IMG/VR virus record: IMGVR_UViG_3300034101_006325
Location: 136,304-200,303 of that record
Strand: one strand, 5' to 3'
Source of the DNA: a virus
Taxonomy: Duplodnaviria; Caudoviricetes
Length of the DNA stretch: 64,000 bases
Positions 11,475 through 63,868 of the stretch are shown here, piece by piece. How positions within the stretch are numbered: position 1 is the first letter of the stretch; every line of letters starts with the position of its first letter. Below the pieces are notes generated by a model that saw nothing but the letters and a program-made list of their open reading frames with translations, did not search any database and was not told the origin of the DNA. Both the position numbers and the translations under genes were made by a program.

Positions 11475-11678
11475 TCACTTATTTTCTTGCTTAGATGATT
11501 TTTCAAGTTCAATTGTAAGCTTGACGAGCTCTTTTGATTTTGTCTGAAGAGCTCTCAAACCTTTTCTAGCTCTAACTCCAGCTGCTGAAACGCCTCTTGC
11601 ATTTTTTGCAATATCAACTTCTAAAGCTTCAACTAAAGATTTAAGCTCATTCCACTTTAATAACACGTCATTTTCCAT
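11475..11678 (-). CDS. Histone H1-like nucleoid protein (Hc1 family)
   Basis: ELKSLVEALEVDIAKNARGVSAAGVRARKGLRALQ matches the Hc1 core (D..K...GN.AAG.RARK...L); SD GGAG. Confidence 0.75.
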   Translation of the reverse strand: MENDVLLKWNELKSLVEALEVDIAKNARGVSAAGVRARKGLRALQTKSKELVKLTIELEKSSKQENK

Positions 11679-56969: not shown

Positions 56970-57007
56970 ATTATTCGGTAATAATTGCAACATCTAATTA
57001 TTAAAGA

Positions 57008-57451
57008 TTATTCTAAAGTTGTTTCTTCGTCAACAGAAGACCAAGAATAGTCGTCTTCTAGACGATAAGATCCGACGTATTTATGGGGACAATTCTCTCC
57101 CCACTCTTGAGGAGAGATTAAAGAAAAATACGTGTCATTTTGACCTCTATCATAGAGATAGTATGTGTGTCCTGGCCTTTTGATGAATTGACAGCTTGCT
57201 CGGTGTAAGTCAAAATTTTTTTGTGATTCCATTATAATTTTTCTGGCTTCTTTCTGAAGATTTTTGATTTGATCGACTATGACTGTCAATTTTGCTTTTT
57301 CTACAAGAGATAGAAATTTTTCTGCTTCTTTATAGACTTCTAGTTGATTTACTGGCTCAAATTTGGCAGAAATTCTGCTAATAGGATAAGAAGAATCCTT
57401 ATTGCTCAAAACAATTGATGAATTATCTTTTTGATTAAATTTTTGAGACAT
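57008..57451 (-). CDS. DUF2452-like protein
   Basis: KLTVIVDQI..LQKEARKI, CQF...PGHTYYLY, SLISPQEWG, GSYRLE.DYSW. Confidence 0.75.
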   Translation of the reverse strand: MSQKFNQKDNSSIVLSNKDSSYPISRISAKFEPVNQLEVYKEAEKFLSLVEKAKLTVIVDQIKNLQKEARKIIMESQKNFDLHRASCQFIKRPGHTYYLYDRGQNDTYFSLISPQEWGENCPHKYVGSYRLEDDYSWSSVDEETTLE

Positions 57452-58805
57452 TGTTAACTTCCAGAGATTTTAGATAATTCTGACCGACAGCAATAATCTT
57501 TTGATCAACGTCTCGAAAGTCTCGCACTCTCAAAAATACAGGGAATCTAACCTTTCCATCCTTTGTCAGGCCATCCTTCGTCATAGGATCAGGTTGACCT
57601 TCAACCTCTACAATTTTACCAATCCATGAATTTGGATCAATTCCAATTTCTGTCTTTAATTTGTCGGTATAACCTCCGCCGACCCGAGTGACAATGCCAT
57701 TTGACATTACAACTTCAAATCCTCCCCACAAACCTTCTCGCTTTGAGCCTCGATTTCCCAAATAATGACCAACGATCATTCCTTCATACGTCGCGACGGG
57801 CTTCATTTTAACGACAGCATCTGATCTTTTAAAAGAATAATTTGCATTTAAATTCTTGATCATGATGCCTTCATAACCTTTGCTCATGCAATTTGAGTAA
57901 AATTGCAGTAGTTCTTTCTCATTGGCGACAGTCTCACCAAAAACATTTATAATTTTTTTGCAATTCGTCTTTTCGATCAGCTCCGCAGCAAGAGCAATTC
58001 TGTCCAACAAAGAAAGAGAACATTGTTGATCACGCCAATCGTCGAAAGCCATTGCGTCAAATACATGATAAAACATGTTGTCATCATTTTTGTTTGTCTT
58101 GTAAGACATTACGACCGAAGCAGATTCATTCCAGTCTGATCCCATTACCTCGCCGTCGAGAACAAAATTGTCCCAATCACTTTTTTCAATTGCATTTTTA
58201 ATTTGAGGAAGTGTTTCAATCACCGATCCACTCCGGGTAAACATGGTAACGTTTCCATCATTTTTTACGATGATGCATCGAAGTCCATCCAACTTGGGCT
58301 CTACTCTTACGGGATAATCAATAACTTCATCAATGACAATACCTGTAGTGACATCATGATGTGTCTTTAGACTTTCTGCAAGCTGTACAGAAAATCCAAC
58401 TATTGTATTTGGCCAAGTCTTATTAATGGTTGCTTCTTGGACACCGCACCTCAAATTTTTAAGAATAATTCTTTGACACCATTTTTGCTGAAGCTGTGTA
58501 AGCTTTGAAAATTGAGAAACAACTGAATCTTTTGCAGTATTTCCTGTAATTTTTCTTGTCGAAAGAGTGTTAATAATAAAATCTAAAAAATCTTCAACAG
58601 CATCATTGTCAGACATGCCAATTGAATCTGCAATAGCAATTGGCATTTTAAATTTATTGATGTAAAAATTGCTGTAAGGATCTCCTACAGCAATAAACAC
58701 CTTCTTCAACAATTCATTTTTACTATTTTCTTCAAGAACCTGTTCTTTAAAGAGTCTAGAATTATTTGATTCAAGAAATTCCAAAATTTCAATTACAGAA
58801 GTCAT
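57435..58805 (-). CDS. lig: ATP-dependent DNA ligase
   Basis: EPKLDGLR (adenylated Lys), LDGEV, YHVFD, EGIMIK, VKMK, FPVF.R.R; N-terminal DNA-binding domain. Confidence 0.95.
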   Translation of the reverse strand: MTSVIEILEFLESNNSRLFKEQVLEENSKNELLKKVFIAVGDPYSNFYINKFKMPIAIADSIGMSDNDAVEDFLDFIINTLSTRKITGNTAKDSVVSQFSKLTQLQQKWCQRIILKNLRCGVQEATINKTWPNTIVGFSVQLAESLKTHHDVTTGIVIDEVIDYPVRVEPKLDGLRCIIVKNDGNVTMFTRSGSVIETLPQIKNAIEKSDWDNFVLDGEVMGSDWNESASVVMSYKTNKNDDNMFYHVFDAMAFDDWRDQQCSLSLLDRIALAAELIEKTNCKKIINVFGETVANEKELLQFYSNCMSKGYEGIMIKNLNANYSFKRSDAVVKMKPVATYEGMIVGHYLGNRGSKREGLWGGFEVVMSNGIVTRVGGGYTDKLKTEIGIDPNSWIGKIVEVEGQPDPMTKDGLTKDGKVRFPVFLRVRDFRDVDQKIIAVGQNYLKSLEVNNVSKI

Positions 58806-58813
58806 TTAACCTC

Positions 58814-58865
58814 TTTGACATGTCAAATATAACATGACACAGCTTGACATTGCACGTCAAGCTGT
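58814..58865 (-). promoter_or_regulatory. Promoter GTGCAA-N18-TATATT flanked by two TTGAC/GTCAA inverted repeats
   Basis: 14-bp palindrome TTTGACATGTCAAA (58814-58827); 10-bp inverted repeat ACAGCTTGAC-N7-GTCAAGCTGT (58839-58865). Confidence 0.6.
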
Positions 58866-58868
58866 TGA

Positions 58869-59264
58869 TTAGAAGTTTCCTTTTTTATTTTTTGATTTTG
58901 AGTAATATTTCACAGGTAAAACGTTAGATTCAACTTCTTCTTTTTCCTGATGATCTACTTGTGGAGAAAGTTGCTCATGTCCTGCAAATGAGTCAACTTG
59001 AATTTTTTCACCAGAATCTTTAACTAATTGTGGTGGGTCCAAAACAACGACACCTTCTTGTGGAGAAGAATAATTTTCACCAATAGACTTTTTAAATAAG
59101 TCTTCGTCGGGAGGAGCAACTCCCATATTGCTACACATAGAAAGAAGCGTGTTGTAGGAAACAATTCCTGAATTTTTCAGGAAGTCTTTTAGACTTGTTC
59201 TTCTTTTTTTTAGAAGATCCATTAATTTAATAGGGGGTAGTCCTCTAACAGTATAGTTTGACAT
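58869..59264 (-). CDS. Hypothetical protein
   Basis: 131 aa ORF in the minus-strand block. Confidence 0.55.
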   Translation of the reverse strand: MSNYTVRGLPPIKLMDLLKKRRTSLKDFLKNSGIVSYNTLLSMCSNMGVAPPDEDLFKKSIGENYSSPQEGVVVLDPPQLVKDSGEKIQVDSFAGHEQLSPQVDHQEKEEVESNVLPVKYYSKSKNKKGNF

Positions 59265-59284
59265 ATTGATCTCTACAGTAAGTA

Positions 59285-59575
59285 TTAGTCACATTTGTCT
59301 TGAAGACTATGCAAAATGTCTGCAATTGCACTCTGGAATTCAGGCGATCGTGCGACGTTTTTAATTCTTTCGTCTGAAAGACCCAAGCTCCACCTTTCAT
59401 CAAATTCTTCGGCAAATTTATTCATCACACGCAGGACATAATTCCTTGCAGAGGAATGATTCATGGTAAAACCTAGCTGTGTCATAATGTCGGCAATTTC
59501 ACGATAATTTACACCTTCGTCTTCGACGACTGTAGCATATCCTTTTGAAAATTGTGTGCCTTTTTTTACAACCAT
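59285..59575 (-). CDS. HTH DNA-binding protein, sigma region-4/ECF-like
   Basis: EGVNYREIADIMTQLGFTMNHSSARNYVLRVMNKF; ATG 59575 with SD GAGAGGA. Confidence 0.6.
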   Translation of the reverse strand: MVVKKGTQFSKGYATVVEDEGVNYREIADIMTQLGFTMNHSSARNYVLRVMNKFAEEFDERWSLGLSDERIKNVARSPEFQSAIADILHSLQDKCD

Positions 59576-59576
59576 T

Positions 59577-59807
59577 TTAGTCCTCTCTATCGTAAATTCT
59601 AAATGTTTTGGCAAAACGATTCTGCTGAATACCCAACAATCTTTTATTCAAATCACCATGAATGTCTTGCTCTGGGTCTTTTCTAATTCTGTCCATTTTT
59701 AGAAAGATATTATTCAAAGACGCTGTAATATTTCTTAGAATATTAATTTGATAAATTAAGCATAATAAAATTAAAAAATTAACTAAAGTCGACACTAGAC
59801 TCAACAT
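59577..59807 (-). CDS. Small membrane-anchored protein
   Basis: N-terminal hydrophobic helix; TAATG overlap with the sigma gene stop. Confidence 0.6.
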   Translation of the reverse strand: MLSLVSTLVNFLILLCLIYQINILRNITASLNNIFLKMDRIRKDPEQDIHGDLNKRLLGIQQNRFAKTFRIYDRED

Positions 59808-60604
59808 TACCTCAAACCTTTACCTGAAATTATATCAAGTTTTTCTGTGTCTGTGACTGTATACAAAGTATCTTCAATATCTTCTGTTAGACCAAATCGA
59901 AGTCTTAAAATTGCTGCTTCTTTAGCTGACAAATTTGAAAGAACATTTTTTACAACATTCATTAATTCTTTCTTTGCAAGAACTTCAAATGGATTTAAAT
60001 TTTCGTTAAGATCTTCTAATTTATCTTCAAGTGTTGAGTCTTCTGAATCAGAAAGAATTGGCTGATTAAGCGAAATTACATTTCTACCCGAATGAATTGT
60101 TGCCTTTACAACAGACTCAGAAACCTCAATCATAGAAGAAAGTTCTTCTGACGTAGGTTCAGAACCCATTTCATCCTTGTAATTGTTCATTGCTTCGATC
60201 ATTTTCCTTTGAGCCGAAGCAGCATGAGCAGGCAATCGAATAATCTTTTTTCGCTTTAAGACATATTGACTAATTGCCTGCTTAATCCACCAAGTCGCAT
60301 ATGTTGAAAAACGAAAACCTTTCTTCCAGTCAAATCTTTCGATTGCCTTGAGCAATCCTAGATTTCCTTCCTGAATAAGATCTTCTAGCGGAATGTTGTG
60401 GCTCTTCTGTTTTTTTGCAACATAAACAACCAGCCTAAGGTTGGACTCAGCCAATTTTTTGCGAGCACTAATAGACTCCTTGCCACCTTTTTCATATTTT
60501 TGAAAAAGATCAACAAGCTGCTCGTGTGTCAATTGTGGGTAGGATTGAAGAGAATTAAGATAGTTCGTAATTGAACTATTCGTATTTGTTATTTTTTCAA
60601 ACAT
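59807..60604 (-). CDS. RpoD-like sigma-70 factor lacking region 4.2
   Basis: Region 1.2 (NYLNSL..YPQLT), 2 (SNLRLVV..AKK, DLIQEGNLGLLKAIERFDWKKGFRFSTYATWWIKQAI), 3 (IRLP, SLNQPI), 4.1 (LSAKEAAILRLRFGL), then ends without the HTH; start refined to ATG 60604. Confidence 0.92.
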   Translation of the reverse strand: MFEKITNTNSSITNYLNSLQSYPQLTHEQLVDLFQKYEKGGKESISARKKLAESNLRLVVYVAKKQKSHNIPLEDLIQEGNLGLLKAIERFDWKKGFRFSTYATWWIKQAISQYVLKRKKIIRLPAHAASAQRKMIEAMNNYKDEMGSEPTSEELSSMIEVSESVVKATIHSGRNVISLNQPILSDSEDSTLEDKLEDLNENLNPFEVLAKKELMNVVKNVLSNLSAKEAAILRLRFGLTEDIEDTLYTVTDTEKLDIISGKGLR

Positions 60605-60608
60605 TAGA

Positions 60609-60968
60609 TTAGTTGAGGATTCTTGATTCAACATCATCGGTGCCTTGTGTTTCAAATGAACTGTCATAGACCTCACCACCTCTAGCAACAAAATCTCTCA
60701 TATATGCTTCATGCTTTTCAGCCCTTGTTTGCCTAATTTGCTTCTCTCGCTGAAGATAAGCGAGCTCAACTTCCCAAAGCATAGGGTCCAGCTTTGCATC
60801 AGAAACTCTAACCTTTTCGTTCTCGAGCCTCACCATTCTCTCAGAAAGAAGCTCATCTGAATAATATCCAATGTCGTCCATGCAAACGACCTCGGGTGCT
60901 GGAAATGTCTTGGACCCACGAAATGTTGATTCGGTGCTCTGCTGATTGTTCTTATTCTTCTTTGACAT
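60609..60968 (-). CDS. Hypothetical coiled-coil protein
   Basis: 119 aa; SD AAAGG. Confidence 0.55.
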   Translation of the reverse strand: MSKKNKNNQQSTESTFRGSKTFPAPEVVCMDDIGYYSDELLSERMVRLENEKVRVSDAKLDPMLWEVELAYLQREKQIRQTRAEKHEAYMRDFVARGGEVYDSSFETQGTDDVESRILN

Positions 60969-60991
60969 TTTTACCTTTTCTTGGTTTGTTT

Positions 60992-61021
60992 AAAATAATA
61001 GACACACAGTAAACTTTGTAC
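60992..61021 (-). promoter_or_regulatory. Candidate phage promoter GTACAA-N18-TATTTT
   Basis: Shares -35, spacing and the spacer TGTGTC with the ligase promoter; upstream of the operon containing the truncated sigma. Confidence 0.5.
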
Positions 61022-61033
61022 ATAGGGGAAAAA

Positions 61034-61390
61034 TTACATGAGAATTGTTCCCCACTCATTCGGGCCGATTGTATAGATTACTTTTCTAACTCCCGCTGTT
61101 TTCATTCTTCTTTGACACCTTTCACAGGGTCTAGCCATGGCCCATTCTCTAGTTGCTTTGCTTACTCTTGCAACCCAAACATGAGAATCAAGTGTTAATT
61201 TTCTCACAACTCTAGCCTCTGCATGAGCCTCTGGAGTGACATCAGTCGCAGCAATATTTCTTGCTGAAACAATTACACCATCATTTCTCATGCCCACTGC
61301 GCCTAAGTGAAAGCTTCTATTGTCGTGACGACTACACCCTTCTGATGCAACTGTTGCCGCAAGAGTTAACATTCGCTTGTCAATCGACAG
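61034..61390 (-). CDS. Cytidine/deoxycytidylate deaminase-family protein
   Basis: FHLGAVG, HAE, PCERC zinc motifs. First ATG is at 61372; CTG 61390 has the well-spaced SD GAGGAG. Confidence 0.8.
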   Translation of the reverse strand: MSIDKRMLTLAATVASEGCSRHDNRSFHLGAVGMRNDGVIVSARNIAATDVTPEAHAEARVVRKLTLDSHVWVARVSKATREWAMARPCERCQRRMKTAGVRKVIYTIGPNEWGTILM

Positions 61391-61393
61391 AGT

Positions 61394-61624
61394 CTATCTC
61401 CTCTTTTTTTGTTCCTGCTCAAGTGTCTTGAGCGATTGCTTTTTACACCACTCTTCACCAGATGATTGCGATGTGATCGCAGGACCCCACTTAGAAGTGG
61501 TAATCAATGCTGTTCCTTCATACACTTCAAGAAGTGCACCAGCATCATCAATTCTAAGATAAATTGTCCAAGATCCGCTGATATAACTGTGGTAACCTTC
61601 GCTAATTTCTTCCCAATTGCTCAT
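61394..61624 (-). CDS. Hypothetical protein
   Basis: 76 aa; SD GAG; upstream promoter motif. Confidence 0.55.
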   Translation of the reverse strand: MSNWEEISEGYHSYISGSWTIYLRIDDAGALLEVYEGTALITTSKWGPAITSQSSGEEWCKKQSLKTLEQEQKKRR

Positions 61625-61637
61625 GGCTAACTCTTAT

Positions 61638-61667
61638 ACTTTATACTATGACAAAGTTACTTTGCAC
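61638..61667 (-). promoter_or_regulatory. Candidate phage promoter GTGCAA-N18-TAAAGT
   Basis: Same class as 58826 and 60992; spacer holds the inverted repeat CAAAGT-T-ACTTTG. Confidence 0.5.
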
Positions 61668-61710
61668 AATTTAAATTTTGAAAAATCATTTATGATTTAT
61701 ATTTAAATTT

Positions 61711-62436
61711 ATGAGAACGTTCAACGTCATCAACAAATCTACCAACGTTTCCGAAGCAGATTTGAACCTGATGGTTGAAGCCTGTAGAATACAGTTGAAT
61801 CAACATGCAGCCCCACTCCTGGAAAGGATGCCGTGGGAGATAAAGGTAGGTGGTAATGATGGATTCCCCGTTGTTCTTATTGACTCTCCAGATGTTGCTG
61901 GTGCTCTTGGATACCATACGCAAGATCCTGACGGAAGAGTTTGGTGTAGAGTTTTTACGGACCCGCTATTGAAGCACGGCGGAACGGTGTTAAAAGGAAC
62001 TCATGCCGTTTCTACCGTGTTATCCCATGAAATACTTGAAACCTTCTATAACCCGTACATCAACCTGTGGTCAAACAGAGGAGATCACACGTTCGTTGCA
62101 TTAGAACTCTGTGATCCTGTGCAAGGAGATTCATACGATGTTGATGTCAATGGTACACCAGTCACAGTTTCAAACTTTGTTCTTGAGGCATGGTTTGATA
62201 GAGAGATGGGTAAGGCAGGTAGATTTGACTACATGAACATATTGAAAAAACCGTTGGACATGTCAAAAGGTGGCTATACCATTATTTTTAACAGTCAAAC
62301 GGGAGAAGTTAAATCCGTCTTCGCAAGCAAAGAAGGAGAAGATTTACATAATATTCTCAAACCAGGTCACTCTGCGTCGAGATCTTCAAGAAATAAGTCT
62401 GACTGTGCTATCAAGAAAGATCTTCCAACTTATTAG
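61711..62436 (+). CDS. Putative zinc metallopeptidase-like protein (HExxE)
   Basis: ALGYH, STVLSHEILETFYNP, ELCDPV, VSNFV..AWF. Confidence 0.5.
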   Translation: MRTFNVINKSTNVSEADLNLMVEACRIQLNQHAAPLLERMPWEIKVGGNDGFPVVLIDSPDVAGALGYHTQDPDGRVWCRVFTDPLLKHGGTVLKGTHAVSTVLSHEILETFYNPYINLWSNRGDHTFVALELCDPVQGDSYDVDVNGTPVTVSNFVLEAWFDREMGKAGRFDYMNILKKPLDMSKGGYTIIFNSQTGEVKSVFASKEGEDLHNILKPGHSASRSSRNKSDCAIKKDLPTY

Positions 62437-63412: not shown

Positions 63413-63475
63413 GAATCTAACTATAAAGTTTAGATTATAAGTTTTGAACTGTACAATTTTATATTTATCTTTTAT

Positions 63476-63868
63476 ATGATTCTGAACCAAATAAAACATT
63501 TCTCGAGAGTCGCACACTCTTTAGTACGAGAAAGTTCAAAATCAAAAAAAAGATCCACACATTGGAACTATATTAGAGATCAATTTATTGAAGTAAATCC
63601 TTATTGTGAAGCGTGTGGCGCCTCAGAAAAACTCCAGGTTCATCACATAATCCCGTTCTCTAATCGACCTGACCTTGAATTGGTGGATTCAAATTTAATT
63701 GTGCTTTGTATGAGTATTAATGAGTGCCATTTTCTACTTGGTCACGGTGGATCTTTTAAGACTTACAACCCAAATGTCGCGCAAGACGCAAGGAACTTCA
63801 GAAATCAAGACGACTCACACATTAGACAGTTAATTGTTGAAAATGCAATGAAGAATCGGCTAGACTAG
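63476..63868 (+). CDS. HNH endonuclease
   Basis: CEACG, LQVHHIIP, NLIVLC, CHFLLGH. Confidence 0.88.
   Translation: MILNQIKHFSRVAHSLVRESSKSKKRSTHWNYIRDQFIEVNPYCEACGASEKLQVHHIIPFSNRPDLELVDSNLIVLCMSINECHFLLGHGGSFKTYNPNVAQDARNFRNQDDSHIRQLIVENAMKNRLD

Follow-up and report, generated by a model that had tools for sequence, protein, structure and literature searches.

In a 64,000-nucleotide stretch of a tailed-phage genome (Duplodnaviria; Caudoviricetes; positions 136,304 to 200,303 of the 200,303-bp IMG/VR record IMGVR_UViG_3300034101_006325; hereafter the window, numbered from its first letter), we found a minus-strand gene cassette built around an RpoD-like sigma factor that ends just before the recognition helix of region 4.2. 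The cassette comprises a protein of 119 amino acids (aa), the sigma factor, a small membrane protein, a helix-turn-helix (HTH) protein termed HTH96 and a 131-aa protein. Elsewhere in the window lie a gene for a stand-alone region-4.2 protein (P0122), a gp55-like gene and promoter-like sites with an upstream hexamer (Table 1). Within its own record, the sigma factor is the sole gene with a region 2.

Table 1. Genes and promoter-like sites discussed in the text, with positions in the window
Feature	Position	Strand	Description
Promoter-like site ahead of cassette	60990..61023	-	TGTACAA, 16-18 bp, TAnnnT-like -10; the orthologous first gene has TGTACAA-N16-TAnnnT in 26 loci
119-aa protein, first cassette gene	60609..60968	-	in 74 of 80 loci; no Pfam or PHROG match
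Truncated RpoD-like sigma factor, 265 aa	59807..60604	-	regions 1.2, 2, 3 and 4.1 plus a conserved 26-aa tail; without the 4.2 recognition helix
Small membrane protein, 76 aa	59577..59807	-	N-terminal transmembrane helix; start overlaps the sigma stop, stop abuts the next gene
HTH96, 96-aa helix-turn-helix protein	59285..59575	-	near-invariant core NYREIA..M...G..MNHSSARNY.LR.M.KF
131-aa protein, cassette end	58869..59264	-	in 78 of 80 loci; no Pfam or PHROG match
Promoter-like site ahead of DNA ligase	58826..58855	-	GTGCAA-N18-TATATT; class kept before ligase orthologues
Promoter-like site ahead of P0122	10883..10911	+	TAAACAA-N16-TAATTT
P0122, Cys4 plus sigma region-4.2 protein, 88 aa	10928..11194	+	PF04545 34.3 bits, model positions 20-49
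gp55-like protein, 247 aa	36564..37307	+	phrog_234 'late sigma transcription factor', E = 2e-5; heads the baseplate operon

Residues 16-250 of the sigma factor align with residues 344-576 of Escherichia coli RpoD at 33-40% identity (E about 1e-46 to 1e-47; phmmer against all PDB chains), and Pfam recognizes Sigma70_r2 (PF04542; 74.5 bits, cut-off 24) and Sigma70_r3 (PF04539; 36 bits, cut-off 25.3), while Sigma70_r4 (PF04545) stays below its cut-off (13.1 bits vs 24.1) and is matched only at model positions 1-18 of 50. The PDB alignments stop at E. coli residue ~576-580 of 613, and the protein ends at the point where the turn and the recognition helix (..VTRERIRQIE..) of the region-4.2 HTH would start; RpoD residues ~581-613 (recognition helix and C-terminal tail) are replaced by a family-specific ending, ..I..G.GL. 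The translation closes with ...LRLRFGLTEDIEDTLYTVTDTEKLDIISGKGLR and a TAA stop at 59807-59809, which overlaps the ATG of the following open reading frame (ORF) as TAATG. At the other end, the protein starts at region 1.2 (RpoD residue 344) and has no region 1.1, N-terminal extension or non-conserved region. Its PHROG match is the RpoD-like phrog_351 (columns 477-697) and not the gp55 family. An AlphaFold2 (AF2) model (predicted local distance difference test, pLDDT, 80) has the two helices of region 4.1 and a short helix at residues 252-259, where the first HTH helix would be. A six-frame search with PF04545 across the whole record found no region 4.2 concealed in another frame downstream of the gene, and its only two matches are the partial one in the sigma factor and a gene 49 kb away. 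For introns and other RNA families, positions 57000-62000 were scanned against Rfam at E <= 1, with no more than two chance-level matches. The first-pass annotation, made from the letters of the window, had described regions 1.2 to 4.1 with no HTH to follow, no region 4.2 in the other frames and an overlap of the stop with the next ATG, and the translation, the domain searches and the DNA itself bear it out in each respect. Judged by homology, the protein belongs to the sigma-70 family, although it lacks region 4.2.

The truncation is a family trait. A word-indexed protein search with the sigma factor returned 8000 matches, and none of the best 120 of these, which are 57-97% identical and 247-288 aa long, has the r4 Pfam domain. 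Their C-termini align without gaps to the tail RFGL.ED[IV]..x.Y.[VI][TS]..E...I..G.GL[T], after which comes the stop; across a 97-sequence alignment, region 4.1 is invariant at L225, K228, E229, A231, I232, L235, R236, F237 and G238, and the tail residues D242 and G261 are at least 90% conserved. The truncation extends over more than 120 protein clusters, and the truncated gene is present at 133 IMG/VR loci on contigs of up to 369 kb. When 1.84 billion cluster representatives (50%-identity clusters) were searched exhaustively with HMMER, the short tail was found in at least 41 of the best 150, down to ~38% identity, and full-length bacterial RpoD appeared only from E ~1e-59 on; among more distant relatives, the truncated architecture is kept down to ~37% sigma identity. 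Because the same end point and the same patterned tail recur across homologues, loci and cluster representatives, this comparison indicates that the end is old and under selection, that is, evolved rather than broken, as had been suspected from the single sequence, and hundreds of independent assemblies share it. The first-pass annotation had also reserved the explanation of an assembly artefact for the case of full-length close homologues; the close homologues share the truncation, and that explanation is refuted.

The database names of these homologues say only 'RNA polymerase primary sigma factor', and no published description of a truncated-sigma family turned up in the literature. Two sigma factors of cultured phages were discarded as relatives of this kind: the sigma factor of Vibrio phage VAP7, which is short in the match table, is actually a 415-aa protein, and the rpoD product of Microcystis phage MaAM05 is full length. 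One related genome (G005) also has, beside the truncated sigma factor, a second one of 229 aa with a complete region 4 (L088:1483-2172, minus strand).

We surveyed gene order in 80 IMG/VR loci and four distant relatives, the latter being one 96%-complete genome (sigma 37% identical) and three contigs (sigmas 37-46%). At 80 of the 80 loci, the order is the 119-aa protein, the sigma factor, an interval of ~200-230 nt, an HTH protein of 90-110 aa, a protein of the 131-aa type and then usually a DNA ligase. With the four distant relatives added, the HTH96 gene is the next after that of the sigma factor, usually with the membrane-protein ORF in between, in 84 of 84 cases, and in three of the four distant relatives it abuts or overlaps the sigma stop; the adjacent HTH protein noticed at the outset is accordingly real and conserved. 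This pairing is stronger than ordinary synteny, and since it survives deep divergence, HTH96 is the prime candidate for a partner of the sigma factor on genomic grounds. The start of HTH96 is probably the ATG at 59575, and its AF2 model (pLDDT 81) has four helices. Searches for fold relatives of this model found nothing at E <= 0.001 in the PDB (Foldseek) and only generic helical matches in a wide search with VIA (best Z 5.3). Pfam gives weak DUF6471 matches only, in 21 of 46 members, and hhalign found nothing between HTH96 and the P0122 family. Signals below threshold are a match of HTH96 to region 4 of SigR (E = 0.3) and its feature scores against viral r4 clusters in the Atlas (0.82-0.86).

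The sigma-HTH96 interval is itself a gene: in nearly all close loci, it holds an ORF of 65-90 aa with an N-terminal transmembrane helix, and the orthologues in ~40 loci display a C-terminal motif, L[NT].RL..[LI]Q..[RK][FY]S. The ORF is missing between the sigma factor and HTH96 in the distant relatives, and only one sub-lineage has the membrane protein, as an accessory. The 76-aa version of the window matches no known anti-sigma family, and it is placed as an anti-sigma factor would be, making this possibly its role. The last cassette gene encodes the 131-aa protein, whose N-terminus resembles another small HTH.

The domain that the sigma factor lacks is encoded by a separate gene in the same genome, P0122, the lone plus-strand gene amid minus-strand genes. 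P0122 has four conserved cysteines followed by ..GP.TLQEIGKIYGLTRMRICQIEK.IY.KI, and its recognition helix, LTRMRICQIEK, is invariant across 27 orthologues. We found 223 relatives in IMG/VR, and 88 of the 100 nearest clusters in the Atlas are viral Sigma70_r4 proteins of 82-91 aa. The two proteins complement each other along the profiles (PF04545 positions 1-18 in the sigma factor vs 20-49 in P0122; phrog_351 columns 477-697 vs 693-726), so that by profile alignment P0122 is the continuation of the sigma factor exactly at its exit point. Records at least 84% complete that have either gene have both (G001, G002, G006, G011, G012 and G013), and one or the other is sometimes missing from fragments of 25-63% completeness. 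The stand-alone 4.2 protein singled out earlier is hence a real and conserved gene that accompanies the truncated sigma factor in every near-complete relative, a co-occurrence compatible with a functional link without being proof of one. A tblastn search of 50,697 phage records found no cultured carriers of P0122 or HTH96. Next to P0122 lies a gene for a conserved basic protein of ~67-90 aa with the motif ..AKNARG.[SA]AAGVRARKGLR.L.. (11475-11678, minus strand, in the window; also in L083-L085), which is found in four genomes of very different GC content and looks histone-like or nucleoid-associated.

Upstream of these genes and their orthologues, we detected promoter-like sites with a conserved hexamer at a set distance from a TAnnnT -10 element. 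In 78 related loci, TGTACAA-N16-TAnnnT occurs 34 times (1.4 expected) and TGTGCAA-N18-TAnnnT 18 times (2.0 expected), and all of these sites are on the gene strand; the first gene of the cassette is preceded by one in 26 loci, and others lie before the deaminase gene, the ligase gene and small ORFs. Orthologues of P0122 have T[GAT][TA]ACAA-N16-TAnnnT at the corresponding place. In the complete 369-kb genome G002, GTG[AC]AA-N18-TAnnnT is present 60 times against 3.0 expected, with a sharp spacing peak at 18 bp (17 bp, 6; 19 bp, 11); the sites are mostly on the sigma strand and are densest in a small-gene array just upstream of the cassette (62-88 kb, minus strand). Of the 60 sites, 72-73% have G at -14/-13 and 45% have T at -15, TGG being frequent. 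Since the start codon begins 7 nt past the -10 in ~44 of the 60, the transcripts from sites of this type seem to be mostly leaderless pre-late mRNAs. Set against a reversed-pattern control, GTGMAA-N18-TAnnnT was counted 36 times vs 5 in G006, 33 vs 2 in G011, 51 vs 3 in G012 and 18 vs 4 in G001; the distant G013 gave 4 vs 7, and by eye, its promoters read TTGTAAA-N16-TATAAT. The upstream hexamer has the form nTGnAA, not TTGACA, and phages whose GC content spans 30-56% retain it. The element must have a reader, for which the candidates are a phage HTH protein acting with the truncated sigma factor or the host sigma factor.

Several further features of these sites are of note. The small-gene arrays of G002 (L120-L138), G006, G011, G012 and G001 have one GTGMAA-N18-(t)GG-TAGAnT promoter per gene. 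An 8-bp hairpin, AGCTTGAC...GTCAAGCT (58830-58870, minus strand), has in its loop the GTGCAA hexamer of the window's ligase site, whose -10 is followed by a second palindrome, TTGACATGTCAA; together, these may represent a terminator/promoter overlap or an operator. We attempted to tie the changes E585M and R588C of P0122 (E. coli numbering) to changes in the hexamer, and dropped the idea as two hexamer alignments gave contradictory mappings. A look-alike of the hexamer is the -35 sequence TGAAACG of a middle-type promoter in the paper on the jumbo phage CBB.

The sigma factor looks active on the host polymerase, to go by its residues. Both the core-binding stretch of region 2.2 (DLIQEGNLGL) and the DNA-melting and -12-reading residues of regions 2.3/2.4 (FSTYATWWI.QAI) are invariant in the 97 sequences, and both are also conserved in the alignment with PDB sequences. 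In region 3.0, the latter alignment places a Ser at the position of E. coli E458, the residue by which the TG of extended -10 promoters is recognized, and His455 is retained. Neither the own record nor three near-complete relatives have a recognizable gene for an RNA polymerase beta subunit or a T7-type polymerase. Going by its gene content, the phage has two sigma systems, one RpoD-like and one gp55-like, and because there is no recognizable phage polymerase and a separate gp55-like late sigma factor, the RpoD-like one is probably the pre-late sigma factor.

The truncation removes only the DNA-reading helix, the HTH neighbor is obligatory, a complementary 4.2 module is encoded free of the sigma factor, and the promoters possess an upstream element. 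Based on these four observations, we posit, with a probability of about one half, that this is an RpoD-lineage sigma factor in several parts, which works on the host RNA polymerase with a -35 reader supplied in trans. By sequence, the 265-aa protein retains the parts for binding the host core (region 2.2, and region 4.1 for the beta flap) and for melting the DNA and reading a TAnnnT -10 (regions 2.3/2.4), and has lost only the -35-reading helix. An HTH subunit from a gene of its own would recognize the upstream hexamer, GTGMAA or TGTACAA at 16-18 bp from the -10. The candidates for this are HTH96, whose gene is always with that of the sigma factor and is likely co-transcribed, and P0122, with HTH96 the more likely of the two. 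The membrane protein between the sigma factor and HTH96 could be an accessory regulator, possibly a tether or an anti-sigma factor, and the system as a whole would drive the pre-late (early or middle) genes.

A number of observations weigh against such a split arrangement. Binding among the sigma factor, HTH96 and P0122 is a prediction, and a co-fold of sigma residues 186-265 with HTH96, P0122 and the membrane-protein tail, each chain with its own alignment, speaks neither for it nor against it (0.18 against a mark of 0.32, in a four-chain design outside the calibration of the tool). HTH96 has no clear relation to sigma region 4 by profile or fold, with sub-threshold signals only. In the AF2 model, the sigma tail already has a helix at the place of the first HTH helix, which P0122 would duplicate. 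The P0122 gene is never adjacent to that of the sigma factor, and the genomes with both are all of one lineage, such that their co-occurrence could reflect a shared core genome. The hexamer varies among relatives (TTGTAA, GTGAAA, GTGCAA) and the recognition helices of both candidates are invariant. The assignment of the promoters to the truncated sigma factor, rather than to a host sigma factor, is putative: the promoter-dense small-gene arrays resemble early regions, which the host sigma factor could read, and phage early promoters elsewhere deviate from the host consensus. The 18-bp-spaced, RTRCAA-like class proposed in the first-pass annotation is borne out by its abundance in related complete genomes, but it is not enriched in the phage's own incomplete genome (7 vs 6.4; CheckV 61% complete, the contig ending 3.4 kb upstream of the cassette), where k-mer enrichment and neighbor counting are swamped by AT-rich words; the class is visible only in related loci and complete genomes. 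Finally, the G-rich -14/-13, often TGG, could make -35 reading dispensable.

This last point is the basis of the strongest alternative, to which we accord a distinctly smaller but still real chance, namely that the protein is a stand-alone, -35-independent sigma factor, which together with the host core reads nothing beyond the -10 region (TAnnnT and the G-rich -14/-13). On this view, HTH96 and P0122 would act as ordinary regulators of the phage, with the hexamer serving either as their operator or as an element for the host sigma factor to read. Sigma-70 without region 4.2 reportedly initiates at extended -10 promoters, a result said to go back to Kumar et al. in 1993, and the fully conserved domain 2, the G frequencies at -14/-13 with the T at -15 in the G002 sites and the lack of any clear similarity found between HTH96 and region 4 all agree with this reading. 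It is harder to square with the Ser in place of E458, even with His455 kept; the extended -10-only option raised at the outset is favored by the promoters and disfavored by a sigma factor that has lost the TG-reading Glu. Moreover, the hexamer is conserved and spaced as strictly as the -10, and the strict sigma-HTH96 pairing over deep divergence would need another explanation.

An elaboration of the split sigma factor, which we regard as a long shot, is a modular system of three parts, wherein the core module (sigma domains 2 and 3 and region 4.1) docks alternately with an ECF (extracytoplasmic function)-like HTH96 and an RpoD-like P0122 to serve TGTACAA-N16 and GTGMAA-N18 promoters, with the membrane protein as the gate. 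Virions might carry the parts into the cell, which would let the non-host-type leaderless early promoters fire at once. Less probable again is a decoy or host shut-off factor that binds the host core, forms no productive promoter complexes and sequesters the polymerase. The loss of the -35 reader would suit this, and core binding would remain feasible through the conserved regions 2.2 and 4.1. However, the melting and -10-reading residues, which a decoy would not need, are invariant across the family together with the core-binding ones, region 3 is kept, and a phage without a recognizable polymerase of its own needs the host enzyme for dozens of non-canonical promoters; the dominant-negative sequesterer of the first-pass annotation is disfavored on these grounds. 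As for an assembly artefact, a pseudogene or an intron- or intein-interrupted gene with its true 3' end elsewhere, the identical end in hundreds of independent assemblies, the conserved tail, the Rfam scan free of introns and other RNA families, the failure to find region 4.2 in any frame nearby and the downstream ORFs, which are themselves conserved genes, leave it with next to no probability.

Sigma factors are textbook single polypeptides, in which domains 2 and 4 read the -10 and the -35. With the group 1/2 sigma-70 factors (RpoD, RpoS, SigA), the phage protein shares homology over regions 1.2-4.1 and the core-binding, melting and -12-reading residues; it differs from them in having no region 1.1, non-conserved region or 4.2 recognition helix. 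To our knowledge, only two natural split sigma systems are known, T4 gp55/gp33 and SigO-RsoA. In the T4 late system, gp55 (sigma-2-like) acts with gp33, a flap-binding, sigma-4-like protein that does not bind DNA, and with the gp45 clamp. Sigma functions are thus divided over separate polypeptides on the host core polymerase, which is the likeness to the arrangement proposed here; however, the large part in our case is RpoD-like and keeps domains 2, 3 and half of 4, the candidate partners have HTH domains, unlike gp33 with its lack of DNA binding, and the phage has a gp55-like gene of its own as a separate entity. In SigO-RsoA, a cellular system of the ECF type, two proteins jointly supply the promoter-recognition domains and the region-2 function is the detached one. 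Passages in two papers name this Bacillus subtilis pair as a two-subunit sigma factor (PMC10028694, PMC7826278). By description, it is a cellular, ECF-type mirror image of the proposed phage case.

With AsiA and MotA, T4 remodels the full-length host sigma-70, the MotA box lying at -30. This sigma appropriation is treated in PMC2988021. The proposed likeness is that the -35 reading of the sigma factor is replaced by a separate phage DNA-binding protein with a different upstream element; the difference is that here the phage's own sigma factor already comes without a -35 reader and the upstream element sits at the canonical 16-18 bp. P0122 resembles other stand-alone phage sigma region-4 proteins in being small and essentially a 4.2 HTH, and differs from them in its four-Cys N-terminal module and in its companion sigma factor that is without exactly that part. 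The architecture is therefore absent from the nearest functional precedents, gp55/gp33, SigO-RsoA and AsiA/MotA.

Irrespective of how the promoters are read, these genes mark out an uncultured family of great size (phages of 300-370 kb; no fewer than 40 clusters at 50% identity) with an RpoD-type sigma factor shorn of its -35 helix. Should the parts co-assemble, nature would have run an experiment in modular promoter recognition, synthetic biology would gain an orthogonal set of sigma factor and promoters that is ready to use, and the question of how jumbo phages lacking a polymerase reprogramme the host enzyme would have an answer open to direct testing. A sigma factor sufficient by itself would make this the first -35-independent RpoD-type family found in nature.

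Two minor observations concern host-type promoters. In the record of the window (G000), TTGACA-N16-TAnnnT is found 10 times vs 2.1 expected, and several of these sites, near 50.6, 104.6, 105.4 and 161.9 kb, precede genes; this AT-rich phage may also use promoters of the host type. For G002, TTGACn-N16/17-TAnnnT was nominally in excess (25 vs ~6), and we rejected these as promoters, as the sites are mostly far from gene starts. Beyond the cassette, an HNH endonuclease gene (63476-63868, plus strand; phrog_144, E = 5e-14) has a GTACAA-N18-TATATG site ahead of it, at 63451.

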